Assembly: GCA_041484665.1 (NCBI GenBank)
Contig: JBGPIA010000001.1
Coordinates: 608,001-672,000 of the forward strand
Reading direction: 5' to 3'
DNA from: Candidatus Krumholzibacteriia bacterium
GTDB lineage: Bacteria; Krumholzibacteriota; Krumholzibacteriia; JAJRXK01
DNA length: 64,000 bases
Shown: positions 15,194-22,506 of the stretch, piece by piece
Layout: every line of letters starts with the position of its first letter
Numbering within the stretch: the stretch's first letter is position 1
The notes under the pieces: generated by a model
Told to the model about the DNA's origin: nothing
Database searches by the model: none
The model's input: the letters and a program-made list of their open reading frames with translations, nothing else
Position numbers and translations under genes: made by a program

Positions 15194-16054
15194 TCAGGGG
15201 CCTCCGTAGACGATCGGCGGAAGCTGCAGCTGCTGCTGCGGCGTCAGGGTGACCTGCAGCTCCTTGGCACCCAGCACTTCGTGCCAGACGGCCAGCGTGT
15301 AGTCGCCCGGCGGCAGTCCGGTGAGGTGGAAGCTGCCGTCCTCGCCGGTCACGGTGAAGAATGGGTGCGCGATCACGCCGATCCAGGCCTTCATCCACGG
15401 GTGTACGTCGCAGACGACTGGAATCATCACCTCGGGGCGGTCGAAAGTGATGTCGCGGTTGCTGCCCTTGCTGGGAAGGGCCAGGTTGCGGTCCCGGTTG
15501 AGCGCGGGTTTGGCGTGGACGTTGTGCAGGATCTCATCACTGTTGAGGATCTTCAGCGGCTGCCCCACCTGCACCGCGACGATGCGCGGCGTGAACAAGC
15601 AGCCGGCCTGATCCAGCACCACCGGGTCCTTGCGCGGCTCGAACCGGAAACCCGCCAGCCCGTCCTTGATCCAGACCAGCGCTGAGGCGAGCTTCCCGTT
15701 CTTCACGCGGACCTTCTCCTCCACGGGCGGTTGCCCGTGCTGGTGGCCGCACCAGGCTTCGCTGCGCATGTTCACCGGCTGCTCCGCAGGCGGGGTGCCC
15801 GCCAACTCAACGACCCCCATGAGCGTCGCGACGGTCGCGGGATCCACGGTCTTGGCCTGCGTCGCGGGCTGGGTGGCGGCCGACGCGGCGGGCTGGCCGC
15901 CGGGTTGAGCGGCCGGCGTGCCGCCCGCCGGTCGCTGCTGCGTCGTACCGGACTGCTCGCCGGAGCAGCCCGCCGCCAGTGGCAGCGTGAGAAGCAGCAC
16001 CAGCAGGAGCGCGAGCCGACCCAGCCGATGCTGCGTCACGAGTCGAAGCGTCAT
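15194..16054 (-). CDS. Lipoprotein with cupredoxin-like and carboxypeptidase-regulatory-like domains
   Basis: Lipobox LAAGC; LDQAGCLFTPR, NSDEILHNVH, CDVHPWM, HPFFTVTGEDGSFHLTGLPPGDYTLAVWHE. Confidence 0.85.
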   Translation of the reverse strand: MTLRLVTQHRLGRLALLLVLLLTLPLAAGCSGEQSGTTQQRPAGGTPAAQPGGQPAASAATQPATQAKTVDPATVATLMGVVELAGTPPAEQPVNMRSEAWCGHQHGQPPVEEKVRVKNGKLASALVWIKDGLAGFRFEPRKDPVVLDQAGCLFTPRIVAVQVGQPLKILNSDEILHNVHAKPALNRDRNLALPSKGSNRDITFDRPEVMIPVVCDVHPWMKAWIGVIAHPFFTVTGEDGSFHLTGLPPGDYTLAVWHEVLGAKELQVTLTPQQQLQLPPIVYGGP

Positions 16055-16368
16055 GTCCCGGAAGCCTCCGGTTGTGCGGGTGTGGCGTATGCGGGGCAGC
16101 GATTCGCGGACGTACGCGCGCGGAGGTGCGCACGCGGGTACGTGGGTACGTAGACACGCAGGCGGCCCGGCGCAGACGATACACGGGCCGGCCGAGCTCC
16201 GCTACCGGGCACGGCCGCGGCGACTCGCCGTCCTGGCGCAGGGCCGGTGTGATCGGCTACAGTGCCCTGCAACCGATCGTTCCCCCCCGGCGGGGGTGCG
16301 CGTTCGGAAACCCCGGGGAGCGTTGCGCCCTGGGCAGCGACCGAGGGCCGACCTTGCCAGCGGGGATC

Positions 16369-17634
16369 ATGCAGACCGCTCATCAGATCACACGCGACGA
16401 GCTCGTGGCGAAGCTGCGCGACCCCTCGCATCTCTTGCTGGACGTGCTCCCCCGTGAGTCCTTCGAGAGCAGCCACATCTTTGGCGCGGTGAGCCTGCCC
16501 CTGGCGGAGATCCCGTCGCGCGCACGTGCCGTCGCGCCCGATCTCGCGCGGCGGATCTCCGTCTACTGTGGCGGGCCGACCTGACCGCTGGGCGAGCGGG
16601 CCGTGGGCCTGCTGGGTGAGCTGGGATACCACGACGTGCGGCACTACGTGGGCGGCCTGGAGGATTGGACGAAGAGCAATCTTCCGCTGGAAGGGTCCCA
16701 TACCGTGGGGGCGCGCGCGGCCGGCGCCGGCGCGACACGACGAGCCGCGCCGGGAGTCCCCATGGCCAAGCTCCGGCGAGGGCTGCGCGGCGGCCGCTTC
16801 CTGGCCGTACTCACCGAGAGCTCGTTCGGCGGACTGTTCGGCCTGTGGATCCTCGTCGTCGCCGCCTTCGGGCTGCTGTACTGGCTGCTCGGGCTGTGGG
16901 GCGCCCCAGCGATGGCGCAGGCCGGTGCTCCGGTCCGATCGGATCTGCGCGGACTCGGCACCGCGATCTACTTCAGCTTCGTCACCGCCACCTCGGTCGG
17001 CTTCGGGGACGTGGTGCCGCTGGGACTGGGGCGTCTGGTCGCCGTCGTGGAGGCCGGTCTGGAGCTGCTGGTGTTCGGCTGCGTGGTCTCCAAGCTGGTG
17101 AGCAGCCGTCAAGAGCTGCTGACCGAGGAGATCCACCGCATTTCCTTCGAGGACCGCCTGGGTCGCGTGCGCACCAACCTCCACCTCGTCCTCTCGGAGC
17201 TGCAGGCCATCGCGCTGGCACGTGCGGCGGCCGCCAATGCGCCCGCCACCACGGGCGTCGCGCGCGCCGTGACCGCCGCCGCCACCAGCACCGCCCCCTC
17301 CGATCGCCTGTTGCCGCGCGTAGAAAGCCTGGCGATGGTCTTCCTCGGTGAGCTGCGCACCGTCCACGATCTGCTCTACCGCCCGCAGCAGCGTCCGGAC
17401 GATCAAGTTCTCGAGGGGTTGCTGGCAAGCGTCGCAGCGAACCTCCGCGAGCTGCGCGACCTCTCCGCATGGCTGCGCGAGTCCACCCAGGCTACGGCAA
17501 CCCTCAACGGGACCGCTGCGTCCATCGCGCGCCTCGCCGCGGAGATCTGCGGCGAGTGCACGCCGCGCCAGCACGTGCCCGAGGTGAAGTTGTGGATGGA
17601 CCGGATCCAGGAGATCGCCCAGCGGATCTCGTAA
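16369..17634 (+). CDS. Probable selenoprotein: rhodanese domain (CxxxxU) fused to a 2-TM potassium-channel domain; TGA 16582-16584 read as Sec
   Basis: ORFs 16072-16584 and 16603-17634 are in the same frame, separated only by one TGA; rhodanese motifs lie on both sides (LLDVLPRESF..SHIFGAVSLP / YCGGPT* / LGYHDVRHYVGGLEDW); pore motif YFSFVTATSVGFGDVVP. Confidence 0.8.
16585..16624 (+). promoter_or_regulatory. Candidate bacterial SECIS element
   Basis: Stem AGCGGGCC/GGCCUGCU (16595-16613) with a G-starting apical loop 18 nt after the UGA; lower helix CCGCU/AGC(U)GG. Confidence 0.65.
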
Positions 17635-17691
17635 AAGGGCGATCGCCGGAACGCTGGCGTTGCGCCCGCGGTCGGGCGGAGCGCCGGGCGC

Positions 17692-18858
17692 CTACGCCTG
17701 TCGCAAGAGCTGCGCGATCGGCTCGCGCGAGGCCGACCAGGCTGGTGCGAAGCCGCCGATCACACCGGTGAGCACGGCGAGCAGGATCCCGCCCACCAGC
17801 ACGCCGGGCGTGGTGCGCAGCGAGAAACTGATCTCGCTGAAGGTCAGGAAGTTGGTGGTGCCGGTGGTATAGGCGTTCAGCGGCAGCGAGAGCACCGCTC
17901 CGACCGCACCGGCCAAGAGCCCGATCAGGGCCGCCTCCGTCACGAAGGCCCCCAGGATGCTGCGGCGACGGAAGCCCAGCGCGCGTAGCGTCCCGATCTC
18001 CGTGGCCCGGGCCGAGACCGACGCGTACATCGTGTTGGCCGCGGCGAAACAGGCGCCAAATCCCATCATGATGCCCAGCAGGTTCCCCATGACTACGAAT
18101 TGCCTACCGGTGGCGCGCGTCTGGCTGGCGTAGTACTCCGGCTCCAACAGCGGCTGCAGATGCAGGCGCTGATCGCCCGCGATGCTCGCGGCCAGTGCCT
18201 GGGCGCCCTGCGCCGATGCCGCCCGCAGCAGGCTCGAAGAGCAGACGGTCTCTCGCCGGAAGGCGTTGCCGAAATCCTCCCGCGCCCCCCAGACTTCCGA
18301 GGCAAAGCTCCCGCCCCCGGCGTCGAACAGCCCGACCACCTTGAAACCCAGGCGGCCGAAGGTCACCTCACGCCCGAGCTGCAGTTCGGGGAAGCGCGAG
18401 GCGAGCGACTTACCCACGATCACTTCTCCGGCGCCAGGTCGGAAGTTGTGCCCCTCCACGATCCGCAGCCGCGGCCGCACGAGAAACGCCTCGGGACCGA
18501 CCCCGCGCAGCGCCACGTTGCTCTCGCTGCCGTTGGCCCGCTTGAGGATCTGCAGGATCACGAGCTCGCCCGAAGCCAGCACGTTGCCGTCCGCCGCGTG
18601 GGCGATGCCCGGCATCGCCGCCATCTCGCGGTGGCGCTCCAGGGGAAAGTAGCTCTCGGACTCGCTGCGTGCGCCGTCACGGAGCACGATCACGTTGCGC
18701 GGGTCCCCGCTGCTGCCAAACGCCAGCCTCAGCCCGGCCGCCAGCGACAACACGCCGATATAGACCAGCACGACCATCGCGATCGAGGCGATGGTCATGA
18801 GCGTGGTCCCGCGGCGCACGAACAGGCTGCGGAAGTTGTACTTCATGGGGATGTTCAT
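17692..18858 (-). CDS. ABC exporter permease (MacB/FtsX family)
   Basis: NTMYASVSARATEIGTLRALGFRRRSI; ATGA-coupled to the upstream permease. Confidence 0.92.
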   Translation of the reverse strand: MNIPMKYNFRSLFVRRGTTLMTIASIAMVVLVYIGVLSLAAGLRLAFGSSGDPRNVIVLRDGARSESESYFPLERHREMAAMPGIAHAADGNVLASGELVILQILKRANGSESNVALRGVGPEAFLVRPRLRIVEGHNFRPGAGEVIVGKSLASRFPELQLGREVTFGRLGFKVVGLFDAGGGSFASEVWGAREDFGNAFRRETVCSSSLLRAASAQGAQALAASIAGDQRLHLQPLLEPEYYASQTRATGRQFVVMGNLLGIMMGFGACFAAANTMYASVSARATEIGTLRALGFRRRSILGAFVTEAALIGLLAGAVGAVLSLPLNAYTTGTTNFLTFSEISFSLRTTPGVLVGGILLAVLTGVIGGFAPAWSASREPIAQLLRQA

Positions 18859-20003
18859 GCCACCCTCCGCAGGCCGTCGACGATGCGCAGGCGCGCTGCC
18901 TGGAACGCGGGGAACCAACCGGCGGTGGCGCCGATCAGAAGCGAGAGGCCCACGCCCGACCACAGGGCTCCAGGGGTCAGCCGCAGCGTGCCGAACAGCG
19001 GGAACACATCCCGCATTGCCTTGGCGATGCCGGGCATGATGCTGGCGGCGATCGCCATGCCGATCAGGCCTCCCATCAGGCCGACCACCACGGCCTCGGC
19101 GAGCACCATCCACACGACCTGCCCGCGCCCGAAGCCCAGCGTTTTGAGCACTGCCACCTCCGTGGTCCGCTCGCGCGCGGCCATCGCCATGGTGTTCGCC
19201 GTGATGAAGAGGATCGAGATCACGATGGCCAAGCCGATCGCCCCGAACATCAGCTTGATGTTGCCCAGCATCTCCACGAACGAGAGCCGAAACGCCGCCT
19301 CGGTCTCGGCGCGGACCTGCGCCTGCGAGTTCTCGAACATCTTCTCGGCGGCGGCCACCACGGTGGGGAGGTTCAGCGCCGAGTCCAGCAGCAGCCAGAA
19401 CGCCCCCACCTCGCCGGGGTTGCCCAGCGCTTCCTCGAGATACTTCCGGTGGAAGAGGATCTTCTGCTCCTGCGAAGGCGCGCCGGGGTCGGAGAAGATC
19501 CCGCGCAGCGTGAGGTTGAGATTCACGGGGTAGATGTCCCCCTTGATGAAGATCTGGTCGCCGATCTTCCAGCGATACTTGTCGGCCAGGGCCTGGCCAG
19601 CCAGGAAGCCTCCGCGATCCGCCTGCCACGCCTCCCTCTGCGGGTCGGCGATCTGATACTCCGGAAAGACGCCCAGCACCGTTTCGGGGTCGCTGGCAAA
19701 GCGGGCGAAGAAGTTCTCGGGCCGGTCGTTCTTGTAGACCCCCTGGAACCAGGTCAAAGGAGTGATGGCCTGCACGTGGGGCAGCGTCTGCAAGCGCTGC
19801 AGGTAGGACTCGGGCAGCGAGAATGTGAGCGAGATCGCGTTGCGTACCACCACGCGGTTCTCCTGGGAACCCTCGGCGCGCTCCATGGCCGCCAGCATCG
19901 AGAGCAGCATCGACAGCAGCAACAGCGCGAGGCTCACGCTGCCCATGGTCAGGAAGGTGCGCCGCTTGTTGCGCAGCAGGTTGCGCCAGGCCAGTTTGCC
20001 CAT
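18855..20003 (-). CDS. ABC exporter permease (MacB/FtsX family)
   Basis: [38 protein letters not shown]. Confidence 0.92.
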
Positions 20004-20132
20004 CACGGTCTCCTCGGGGCTACCGGTGGCTCTACCCGCGGTGCGGCCGCGTTCCACCGTAGGTCGAACAGCCGTTCGCCGCCGCTCGCGCGTCGAGATC
20101 GCGGCGGTCCAAGCGCGGATCCACCCCTGGCT

Positions 20133-20932: not shown

Positions 20933-22165
20933 TCACGTCCGCACGCGACGGCCATCGCGCAGGGACTCCAGGTTGACCTGCACGATCGTCTCGCCGCCGC
21001 GCAGCCCCGACAAGACCTCCACCTGATCCCCTGCGGCAGCGCCGACGGTGACCGCCAGCTTGCGCAGCCGGCCCCCCTGCACCACGAACACGAAGGCGTC
21101 CTGCCCCTCCATGCGCACGGCGCTGCGCGTAACTACGATTTTTGCCTGCGCCGCAAGCTGCTCGGTGCGCGTGCCCTCCTCCAGGAAGGTCACCGTCGAG
21201 CTCATGTCGGGCACCAGGCGCGCGTCACGGTCGTCGATGGTGACCTTGACCTGCACGACAGCGCGCTGGCGGTCGGCCGTCGGCACGATCTGGCGCAGCC
21301 GGCCATGATAGCTGACGCCGGGAACGGCATCGACGCCGATCGTCGCCGGTTGGCCCAGCTTCAGCCGCGCGATGTAGCTCTCGTTGATGTCAGCCTCGAC
21401 CTCCAGGCTTCCGAGATCGGCGATGCGCACGATCGATCCGCTGGACTGCTGCGACGTGAAGCCCCCGGGTGCGACCATCTCCCCCACCTCGATGTTCTTG
21501 TCGACGATCACGCCGGAGATGGGGGCCGTTACGACCGTATAGGTCAGGCGGGCCCTTGCTGCCGCCAGCGCAGCCTCAGCGGTACCGAGCTGGGCGCGGG
21601 TGACGTCGAGCCGGGTGCTCGCCGCGTCGTAGTTCGCCTGTGCTCCCACGCCGCTGTCCAGCAGCCCCTGCTGGCGGCCGGCTTCCCGCTGGGCGTCGGC
21701 GACCTGGGCCTGCGCCTCGGCCACCCGCGCCTCCGCCTCCCGCACGGCGGCCTTGAGGTCGTCGCTGTCGAGGACGGCGATCACGTCGCCCGCCTTGACC
21801 GCATCGCCCTCGTCGACCCGTAGCTCCACCACGCGGCCGATGATCTTGGCGCCCACGGCGGCGCGGGTGCGGGCGTAGGTGTAGCCGGTGGCGGTCAAGA
21901 CCGTGGAGGCCTGGGTCGGCGTGATCACCTGGGCGGAGGTGGTCTCCACGCGTGGCAAAAGCCACGGCAAAGGCAACAGCCACGCCCCCGCCAGCAGCAC
22001 GGCTAGCATAACCAGGGCGATCATCCACGGGCGCACGGCCCGCCGCGGGCGGCGCACCACACCTGGGGTCTGCGCCGTGTGGCGGTTCATCCGCAGCGCC
22101 GAGAGATCGGGCCGCGTCGTCTGGCCGGACGCGGGCTCTGGCTGGGCAGTCGGCGGGCCGTCCAA
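20933..22165 (-). CDS. Efflux periplasmic adaptor (membrane fusion protein, MacA-like)
   Basis: DLSALRM + TM, VDEGDAVKAGDVIA lipoyl half-motif, APISGVIV; start uncertain (TTG 22165 or ATG 22090). Confidence 0.9.
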   Translation of the reverse strand: MDGPPTAQPEPASGQTTRPDLSALRMNRHTAQTPGVVRRPRRAVRPWMIALVMLAVLLAGAWLLPLPWLLPRVETTSAQVITPTQASTVLTATGYTYARTRAAVGAKIIGRVVELRVDEGDAVKAGDVIAVLDSDDLKAAVREAEARVAEAQAQVADAQREAGRQQGLLDSGVGAQANYDAASTRLDVTRAQLGTAEAALAAARARLTYTVVTAPISGVIVDKNIEVGEMVAPGGFTSQQSSGSIVRIADLGSLEVEADINESYIARLKLGQPATIGVDAVPGVSYHGRLRQIVPTADRQRAVVQVKVTIDDRDARLVPDMSSTVTFLEEGTRTEQLAAQAKIVVTRSAVRMEGQDAFVFVVQGGRLRKLAVTVGAAAGDQVEVLSGLRGGETIVQVNLESLRDGRRVRT

Positions 22166-22506
22166 CGCTTGGCTCCGGGGCAGGGGGCAACTCGGCCGTG
22201 CGCGCGAGCGGGCGCAGGGCCACGGCTGCGATCGGGGACCCACAGGATAGCGCGGCGGGCGCGGGGCACCAACCCGGAATGCCCCTGGACCTGCTGGAGC
22301 AAGATGCTACCCTGATGTGCTGGTCCCGGGCGTACTTAGTTTGAGGCCGTTGTGCCGGAACGGCCCCGCACTGCGTGTGGGCGCTGCGCCCAAACCGTCC
22401 CGCACCGGCGCCTCGGGCTCCAAGGAAGCCCCTCATCCCATCCATGAGCGCAACCGTCGAACCGCTGCGTCCGCTCCCGACGACATCCCGATCTGCTGGA
22501 GGGCCC

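Follow-up and report, generated by a model that had tools for sequence, protein, structure and literature searches.

The gene analysed here lies on the forward strand of a 64,000-nucleotide stretch (referred to below as the window) of contig JBGPIA010000001.1 (positions 608,001 to 672,000; assembly GCA_041484665.1) from a Candidatus Krumholzibacteriia bacterium. It occupies a single plus-strand frame of 421 codons that runs from ATG 16369 to TAA 17632-17634 and holds one internal stop, a TGA at codon 72 (16582-16584), which comparison with related loci indicates is almost certainly decoded as selenocysteine (Sec). The read-through product joins a rhodanese domain to a potassium-channel-type pore. 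Gene calling with translation table 11 cuts the frame in two (open reading frames, ORFs, at 16072-16584 and 16603-17634). A first reading of the DNA made without database searches (the sequence-only reading) had proposed that these two calls are one frame of 421 codons broken by a single TGA, that the rhodanese fold continues intact past it, and that a two-transmembrane (2-TM) channel follows on the same chain; direct reading of the letters reproduced the first point, and profile searches the other two, with PF00581 and PF07885 both above their cut-offs. The surroundings of the TGA translate as ISVYC67-GGPT-U72-PLGERAVGLLGELGYHDVRHYVGGLEDW, and TATSVGFGDVVP corresponds to residues 206-217 of the read-through protein. 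The upstream ORF alone covers positions 1-70 of the 102 positions of the Pfam rhodanese profile, whereas the read-through protein covers positions 1-101, and the domain therefore continues across the TGA. The start codon may be ATG 16369 (GGGGA 2 bases upstream), with TTG 16354 (GAGGG 6 bases upstream) as the alternative. An antisense ORF of 507 codons (16051-17574, minus strand) gave no Pfam match and is taken to be a spurious ORF typical of G+C-rich DNA.

Codon 72 was compared across 85 loci, consisting of the best 80 of 439 confirmed metagenome relatives, the window's own locus and 4 genome loci. The aligned column held TGA in 79 loci, a Cys codon (TGT or TGC) in 5 and a Ser codon in 1, a Sec share that is biased upward because the 80 metagenome loci were the top matches to an alignment headed by a Sec form. 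The TGA is shared by 78 of the 84 other loci, which are 43-56% identical, and no stop of any other kind was found inside the frame at any of the 85. Full-length orthologs were present in 2 of 61 related genomes: one (G011; 50% identity) has TGA at the same column (VYCGGPTUPVG), and the other (G021; 54% identity) has Cys there (LYCGGPTCPLS). The TGA was also found on two further genome contigs, and the Cys-form orthologs are continuous proteins. The expectations of the sequence-only reading that the TGA would align with Cys and would recur in other genomes were thus borne out, and the letters over the TGA, which it had named as a point to check, proved reproducible: contigs of 4 other sediment-metagenome runs (four study codes, possibly one campaign) span 16300-17015 or more with zero letter differences and carry the same TGA. 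In total, 24 sequencing runs are listed as containing the stretch, none of them an RNA run. One metagenome member (L100:502-1695, plus strand) has a second in-frame TGA at residue 229, where all other members have Gly (GGA-type codon); an error in the sequencing, or decay of this copy, is the probable cause, and we take from it that errors or decay occur among such metagenome contigs.

A hairpin of the bacterial selenocysteine insertion sequence (SECIS) type follows the TGA (Table 1). It begins 12 nt past the UGA codon, and the spacing from UGA to loop is 17 nt; when the U of UGA is numbered as position 1, nt 15-20 pair with nt 26-31. The core shared by the family is a 6-bp stem (16596-16601 with 16607-16612; GCAGGC / GCCUGC) around a five-base loop (16602-16606) of the form N-G-U-N-N, and the version in the window has an 8-bp stem with a GUG loop. 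Published constraints on bacterial SECIS elements are a loop of 3-9 nt, a stem of 4-16 bp, a G in the first two loop positions, a spacing of 16-37 nt and a minimum free energy (MFE) of ≤ -7.5 kcal/mol (available part of PMC13188914, including its Fig. 2 legend); the present hairpin satisfies them with a stem of 6-8 bp, the loop NGUNN, a spacing of 17 nt and an MFE of -13.1 kcal/mol. Folding of the whole of 16575-16660 gave a z-score of just -0.48, and the short hairpin alone stands out. In its GGUC-type loop and its spacing it presumably resembles the E. coli fdhF element. An Rfam scan of 16500-16700 returned nothing near any gathering score.

Across the family this hairpin is conserved. All six core pairs were present in 69 of the 79 TGA loci as against 1 of the 6 non-TGA loci, and GU occupied loop positions 2-3 in 74 of the 79. 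Over 72 distinct sequences, 96.8% of the 432 cells were paired, compared with 26-53% when the 3' partners were slid by 1-3 columns. Third-position entropy, calculated over 75 distinct segments, was 0.18, 0.35, 0.35 and 0.10 bits at codons +4, +5, +8 and +9, which hold the wobble bases of the stem, against 1.1-1.9 bits at the third positions of other codons, even those for invariant residues (1.74 at T-1 and 1.79 at G+24). At codon +4 the G was kept in 97% of sequences despite a varying amino acid (Glu in just 43%). As read from the alignment, these frozen synonymous sites are a stronger argument for the hairpin than covariation. The G021 Cys ortholog showed no such hairpin on folding.

The host genome (G000, in which the window is C1:608001-672000) encodes the Sec machinery that the sequence-only reading had suggested looking for: selA (454.9 bits), selB (353.3 bits) and selD (333 bits) were all found above their cut-offs, and ARAGORN identified tRNA-SeC(tca). 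TGA is the ordinary stop of 4 of the 5 neighbouring genes with Pfam support, and is therefore not reassigned genome-wide. A selA gene was also found in each of the three other genomes with a Sec form, as well as in G021, which has the Cys form. In the genome holding locus L033 (G209) the selA match falls in four consecutive pieces in different frames (G209:C31:12015-13352, minus strand), which looks like assembly frameshift errors rather than a lost gene. The host selD (G000:C10:74937-75869, plus strand; locus L009) itself contains one in-frame TGA, and its product is probably a Sec-containing selenophosphate synthetase. Outside the window, G000:C1:901174-901536 (minus strand; L116) encodes a candidate second selenoprotein of this genome, a thioredoxin-like protein that has a signal peptide and the motif WAPWUHTC (UxxC) and matches Pfam Thioredoxin_7 (E 4e-13) when U is read as C.

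The structure of the read-through protein was modelled with AlphaFold2 from a 79-row alignment (mean predicted local distance difference test, pLDDT, 89.2; predicted template modelling score, pTM, 0.62), and features are collected in Table 1. Residues 1-110 adopt a rhodanese fold, for which VIA-align matched 3nhv (Z 17.0, root-mean-square deviation (rmsd) 3.6, 115 aligned), 6mxv (Z 16.8, rmsd 1.9, 108 aligned) and the persulfide dioxygenase-rhodanese fusion 5ve4 (Z 16.2); Foldseek gave E 2e-6 against 6mxv. The active-site loop, C-G-G-P-T-U, has position 72 as its sixth residue. Among the residues invariant in all 79 aligned proteins are Y66, C67, G211, G213, D214, C394 and C397. The model places helices at 133-150, between the linker and TM1, followed by TM1 (153-176), a pore helix (193-208) and a TM2 helix that starts at 220 and runs unbroken to about residue 290. 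The only Pfam matches on the read-through protein were Rhodanese, Ion_trans_2 (residues 174-245) and a sub-threshold Ion_trans. Pore residues 149-251 matched LliK (5v4s, Z 11.7), SthK (6cjq, Z 11.4) and hERG (8io4, Z 11.7) by VIA-align, and the protein is likely to be a K+-type channel.

Table 1. Features of the rhodanese-channel gene, in window coordinates (residue numbers are those of the read-through protein)
Feature	Position	Strand	Basis
Whole coding sequence, TGA 16582-16584 read as Sec	16369..17634	+	Rhodanese and Ion_trans_2 Pfam matches on one read-through protein
Rhodanese domain, residues 8-102	16390..16674	+	PF00581 48.5 bits, cut-off 22.2
Cys67 codon TGT, canonical catalytic-cysteine position of rhodanese	16567..16569	+	Y66 and C67 invariant 79/79; aligns with YC of solved rhodaneses
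Predicted Sec72 codon TGA, five residues past Cys67 (C-G-G-P-T-U)	16582..16584	+	TGA in 79/85 loci
SECIS-type hairpin AGCGGGCC-GUG-GGCCUGCU	16595..16613	+	-13.1 kcal/mol, z -3.05
Arg-rich disordered linker, residues 112-132	16702..16764	+	pLDDT < 50; variable length in alignments
Pore module TM1/pore helix/filter/TM2, residues 153-245	16825..17103	+	PF07885 43.3 bits, cut-off 22.5
Selectivity-filter region T206-A-T-S-V-G-F-G-D214	16984..17010	+	Direct reading; G211, G213 and D214 invariant 79/79
Helical C-terminal cytoplasmic domain (predicted location), residues 247-421, continuous with TM2	17107..17631	+	Domain model pLDDT 91.7, pTM 0.86
Invariant CxxC, C394-G-E-C397	17548..17559	+	Both Cys in 79/79 and 119/119

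Past the TM2 helix, the model contains four more helices up to residue 420. This C-terminal domain matched no Pfam family, and its fold searches were uninformative (best Foldseek E 0.11; best VIA-align match a helical bundle designed de novo, at Z 11.9); because such scores are expected for any helical bundle, we claim neither a known nor a new fold for it. Since the linker is positive and 2-TM K+ channels have a usual topology that can be used for orientation, the rhodanese and C-terminal domains are both placed, provisionally, in the cytoplasm. Complex prediction between these two domains, performed with natural Cys-form proteins (alignment A4, headed by P0003), scored 0.13 against a mark of 0.32 and gave no verdict.

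The same rhodanese-channel fusion, which the sequence-only reading had proposed to look for elsewhere, occurs in hundreds of database proteins. A word-indexed protein search returned 1046 proteins at E ≤ 1e-5 among 8000 scored candidates. The best 120 comprised 45 full-length proteins (about 385-450 aa, rhodanese plus Ion_trans_2) and 75 short ones (264-349 aa, Ion_trans_2 alone), and in 74 of these 75 the first residue projects onto residues 74-104, inside the rhodanese domain. Because their starts fall just past codon 72, we read the short forms as gene-caller restarts after the Sec codon. When 1.84 billion cluster representatives were searched with a profile and no filter, 211 were found at E ≤ 1e-30; the best 150 rows contained 46 complete matches (counted by eye), 11 full length and 35 short, the latter starting in the rhodanese tail with a match that begins within the protein's first four residues. 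Database members carry the source names Acidobacteria, Vicinamibacterales, NC10, Eisenbacteria and 'Deltaproteobacteria' metagenome-assembled genomes, and the family is a common one among bacteria of soils and sediments. Within species-representative genomes the gene is rare (3 of 208 of the host's own phylum, G000 counted, and 1 of 401 sampled from the phylum of L032). Taken together, the comparative evidence argues for a genuine selenoprotein family that is widespread and, for the most part, mis-annotated.

A maximum-likelihood tree of 79 members, built with the loop columns removed, interleaved Sec and Cys forms with at least 15 changes between them, 9 of which are forced by starred well-supported branches; Ser forms fell in two groups. 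The sequence-only reading had noted that many single-domain rhodaneses carry YCxxxxC at this position, and this holds for the relatives inspected (YCRGPYC in L015 and L016). More distant relatives (P0209-P0266) are 2-TM K+ channels with the same helical C-terminal tail and no rhodanese domain. For 24 of them consisting of pore plus helical tail (match starting at profile 44-72 within the first 30 residues and reaching at least 292), the CxxC was present in 3 (P0209, P0248 and P0251), as against 119 of 119 family members with a rhodanese domain. Because this wider channel set shares the tail without the rhodanese domain, and the CxxC in 3 of 24, the channel core looks older, with the rhodanese domain added to it later. 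One database protein of 634 aa (P0008, from the full-length set of 45) has a UbiE-like S-adenosylmethionine (SAM) methyltransferase N-terminal to its rhodanese domain, which may represent either a genuine fusion or a gene-caller merger of two genes. No longer fused form turned up among proteins of 738-2105 aa at E ≤ 1e-20, a negative that is weak evidence.

Two observations bear on what the channel senses. The first is the CxxC, invariant wherever the rhodanese domain is present. The second is a relative of 565 aa (P0168) that has a rhodanese domain (YCVSSAC), the helical domain and the CxxC (LCGTCS), and additionally a C-terminal AhpC/TSA peroxiredoxin (PF00578 E 2.8e-25; Redoxin E 7.6e-15); another of 455 aa (P0167) contains the start of the same peroxiredoxin domain and then reaches its contig end. 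The invariant CxxC and the peroxiredoxin-fused relative make a redox role more likely.

Comparison with related loci indicates that SelB and tRNA-Sec, guided by the hairpin, almost certainly decode UGA-72 as Sec. We propose that the protein would assemble as a tetramer, as other channels of the same pore type do, with four rhodanese domains and four C-terminal bundles beneath the cytoplasmic gate. Sec72 closes the loop cradling the Cys67 sulfur, and its low-pKa selenolate would react with peroxide, electrophiles or a Cys67 persulfide, so that Cys67 and Sec72 become joined by a selenenylsulfide or by a bridge containing an extra sulfur. This change would reach the gate by way of the long TM2 helix and the C-terminal bundle, the CxxC serving as partner or resetting dithiol of the Cys67-Sec72 switch, and the redox or sulfane-sulfur state of the cell would thereby be coupled to K+ flux and membrane potential. 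The sequence-only reading had likewise proposed a thiol/selenol redox or sulfane-sulfur sensor as the gate of a K+-type channel. Judged from sequence conservation and architecture, a Sec-decoded rhodanese K+ channel gated by a Cys67-Sec72/CxxC switch is, on balance, the probable explanation of the locus. That the sensed signal is a redox or sulfane-sulfur switch is quite possible, a little short of probable. The most specific form of the proposal is advanced tentatively: a first selenoprotein ion channel whose K+ gate would be driven by a reversible Cys67-Sec72 selenenylsulfide (or its sulfur-bridged counterpart), read out or reset by the CxxC.

Several findings weigh against this explanation, in addition to the upward bias in the Sec share given above. 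Among 44 aligned natural full-length proteins (P0008 left out), position 72 is Cys in 34 and Ser in 10, and because of these Ser72 forms the second chalcogen is dispensable in some lineages. In active sulfurtransferases the loop of the catalytic Cys is six residues long and carries basic or hydroxyl side chains (CRxGx[R/T]). The Cys of the present loop, CGGPTU, is invariant and the loop has no basic residue; aligned solved rhodaneses need a 2-residue gap just after the loop, and none has a second Cys there. Because the loop lacks basic residues and is gapped relative to solved rhodaneses, formation of a persulfide on Cys67 is not assured. For the hairpin, compensatory double changes amount to 4 cells in 2 pairs and covariation is thin; the stem also codes for the conserved residues Q-A-V-G-L-L, and part of its conservation is at the protein level. 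In both relatives that carry the peroxiredoxin the filter is degenerate (SSSYGD) and Ion_trans_2 does not match; they may not be channels, and are perhaps a non-conducting redox branch. Finally, neighbour clustering (ORFs within 3.5 kb at 85 loci) found no family conserved across clades.

The neighbour families that did recur (in at most 18 loci each) were all restricted to one clade of closely related contigs. In one such clade, 8 loci have an ArsR-type helix-turn-helix (HTH) domain joined to a SAM methyltransferase at a distance of a few kb from the channel gene, and 10 loci have a formamidopyrimidine-DNA glycosylase near it; L094:7921-9183 and L094:6784-7764 (both plus strand), with their counterparts in related loci, are these clade-restricted neighbours. 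Within the window, the neighbours are a Urate_ox_N protein, a CarboxypepD_reg-like protein, MacB/FtsX and HlyD, and no link to the channel gene was seen. Two overlapping long ORFs on the minus strand (17692-19629 and 18855-20057, within 17692-20057) each match MacB_PCD and FtsX, and represent either a tandem pair of MacB-type permease genes whose ORFs are over-extended or a single gene with a frameshift; an HlyD-type adaptor is encoded at 20933-22243. A scan of 16000-17800 for promoters and terminators found no promoter-like site and a single terminator-like one, which lies within the gene on the minus strand; in G+C-rich DNA this is uninformative.

The main rival explanation keeps the selenoprotein channel and changes its ligand: Cys67, Sec72 and the CxxC would serve to sense soft metals or metalloids, such as Hg, Cu, Cd, As(III) or products of selenite/tellurite. 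Four soft ligands per subunit (C67, U72, C394 and C397) are indeed conserved. The Sec of several transporter-associated selenoproteins may be a metal ligand, and most of these proteins are tied to Hg/As resistance (available part of PMC13188914). The ArsR-type HTH-methyltransferase at 8 loci and the N-terminal methyltransferase of P0008 would also fit. However, the ArsR neighbour belongs to one clade, in which synteny may be shared ancestry, the window has no metal-resistance neighbour, the sole informative fusion is to a peroxiredoxin and not to a metal-binding domain, and no model brings the four ligands together. We consider a metal or metalloid sensor unlikely.

Ranked below it is a selenoprotein in which the rhodanese is a working, membrane-tethered sulfur or selenium transferase, with the pore part serving as anchor or product passage and no gating by the rhodanese. 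A comparable transferase role has reportedly been proposed for YgaP, the membrane-bound rhodanese of E. coli, and the YgaP rhodanese domain was among the fold matches (5hbl; Z 13.7, rmsd 2.3, 103 aligned). This explanation would also account for the invariant Cys67 at the catalytic position and for the peroxiredoxin-fused relatives, which lack the K+ filter and keep the rest of the architecture. It is made improbable by the K+ signature, whose residues G211, G213 and D214 never vary among the 79 family members and argue for selection on ion conduction, and by an active-site loop without the basic residues of active sulfurtransferases.

It is very improbable that the TGA is a real stop separating a 71-residue rhodanese fragment from a channel of its own that starts at GTG 16603, as gene callers annotate. 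Table 11 does yield exactly those two ORFs, and the short form is what is annotated for 75 of the best 120 database proteins. Against this, the first ORF would end inside the active-site loop (70 of 102 profile positions), 74 of the 75 short proteins start at projected residues 74-104 within the rhodanese domain, the Cys-form orthologs are continuous, and conservation is seen in the hairpin, in the column of the TGA and at the frozen wobble positions. Explanations by a nonsense mutation (pseudogene), by an error of sequencing or assembly, or by a TGA read as a non-Sec residue are next to excluded and have little in their favour beyond the second TGA of L100, given the same TGA at 78 of 84 other loci, identical contigs from four other runs, TGA as the stop of 4 of 5 neighbouring genes and Cys as the aligned residue in homologs.

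The Sec-decoded rhodanese channel was then compared with known systems. Five rhodanese-like selenoprotein forms (UxxS, UxxG, CxU, UxxG and the UxxxxU of TsoB), together with several transporter-associated selenoproteins, are described in a May 2026 review (PMC13188914, available part), in the text of which 'channel', 'potassium', 'PF07885' and 'CxxxxU' have 0 occurrences. Such a protein is likewise not mentioned in the available parts of a 2022 review (PMC9312934) and of a report on the algal selenoproteome (PMC7539508). A search of the literature on selenoproteins, rhodaneses and ion or potassium channels, with supplementary survey tables outside its scope, found no description of the family, in agreement with the remark of the sequence-only reading that no bacterial seleno-ion-channel had been described. 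Forms 1-4 share with the present protein a rhodanese fold with Sec in or beside the active-site loop; as read from their motifs, Sec stands at the catalytic Cys position in forms 1, 2 and 4 and at +2 in form 3 (CxU; NF041203), whereas here the Cys is kept and Sec lies at +5, and none of the four is listed with a channel (available parts of PMC13188914 and PMC9312934). NCBIfam holds no model for a CxxxxU rhodanese-channel family, and the protein scored 30.6 bits against the cut-off of 805 for TsoB (NF045694) and 24.7 against 115 for NF041203. It is a sixth rhodanese Sec form, a member of no catalogued one and, as far as found, the first selenoprotein with an ion-channel pore.

TsoB (form 5, resembling a rhodanese/DsbD fusion) was the best selenoprotein-specific match among hidden Markov models (residues 7-118 against model positions 46-167, E 9e-8), and likewise combines a rhodanese with a membrane protein and has a Sec ending a five-residue-spaced pair in the loop. 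It differs in having UxxxxU where the present protein has a Cys first and one Sec, and a DsbD-like electron-transfer domain in place of a K+ pore; the present protein has a CxxC-bearing helical domain, with which TsoB is not reported. Cys-form members of the family (among them P0013, P0005 and P0003 of G021) have the same end-to-end architecture at 41-54% identity, with a CX4C loop, the filter and the CxxC; they are annotated only as 'rhodanese-like domain-containing protein' or 'rhodanese-related sulfurtransferase', and the searches made found no characterisation of them. YgaP of E. coli (5hbl, rhodanese Z 13.7) also joins a cytoplasmic rhodanese to two transmembrane helices; these reportedly do not form a P-loop pore, and YgaP is said to have neither Sec nor the CxxC domain. 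Coupling of a cytoplasmic sensor to a K+ pathway is seen in glutathione-gated KefB/KefC, in channels with Kv-beta oxidoreductase subunits and in the cyclic-nucleotide-gated SthK/LliK. Their sensors are not homologous to that of the present protein, whereas the pores of SthK/LliK do match; Pfam found no KTN/RCK (TrkA), Na_H exchanger-type, aldo-keto reductase or cNMP domain on the read-through protein.

Catalogued selenoproteins are mostly redox enzymes, with some transporter subunits or associated proteins and no ion channel (available part of PMC13188914). The split members of this family are mis-annotated as short 'potassium channel family proteins', and since gene callers split most members (75 of the best 120 entries and 35 of 46 complete cluster representatives are short), soil selenoproteomes are under-counted. 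The natural Sec/Cys/Ser series offers a genetically tractable way to ask why selenium is used over sulfur in a sensor. A selenium-bearing channel sensor would extend selenium biology to electrical and osmotic signalling; if the proposal is true, K+ flux and membrane potential would, in many bacteria of soils and sediments, respond directly to signals from peroxide or sulfane sulfur, and selenium would be used because it is fast and reversible.

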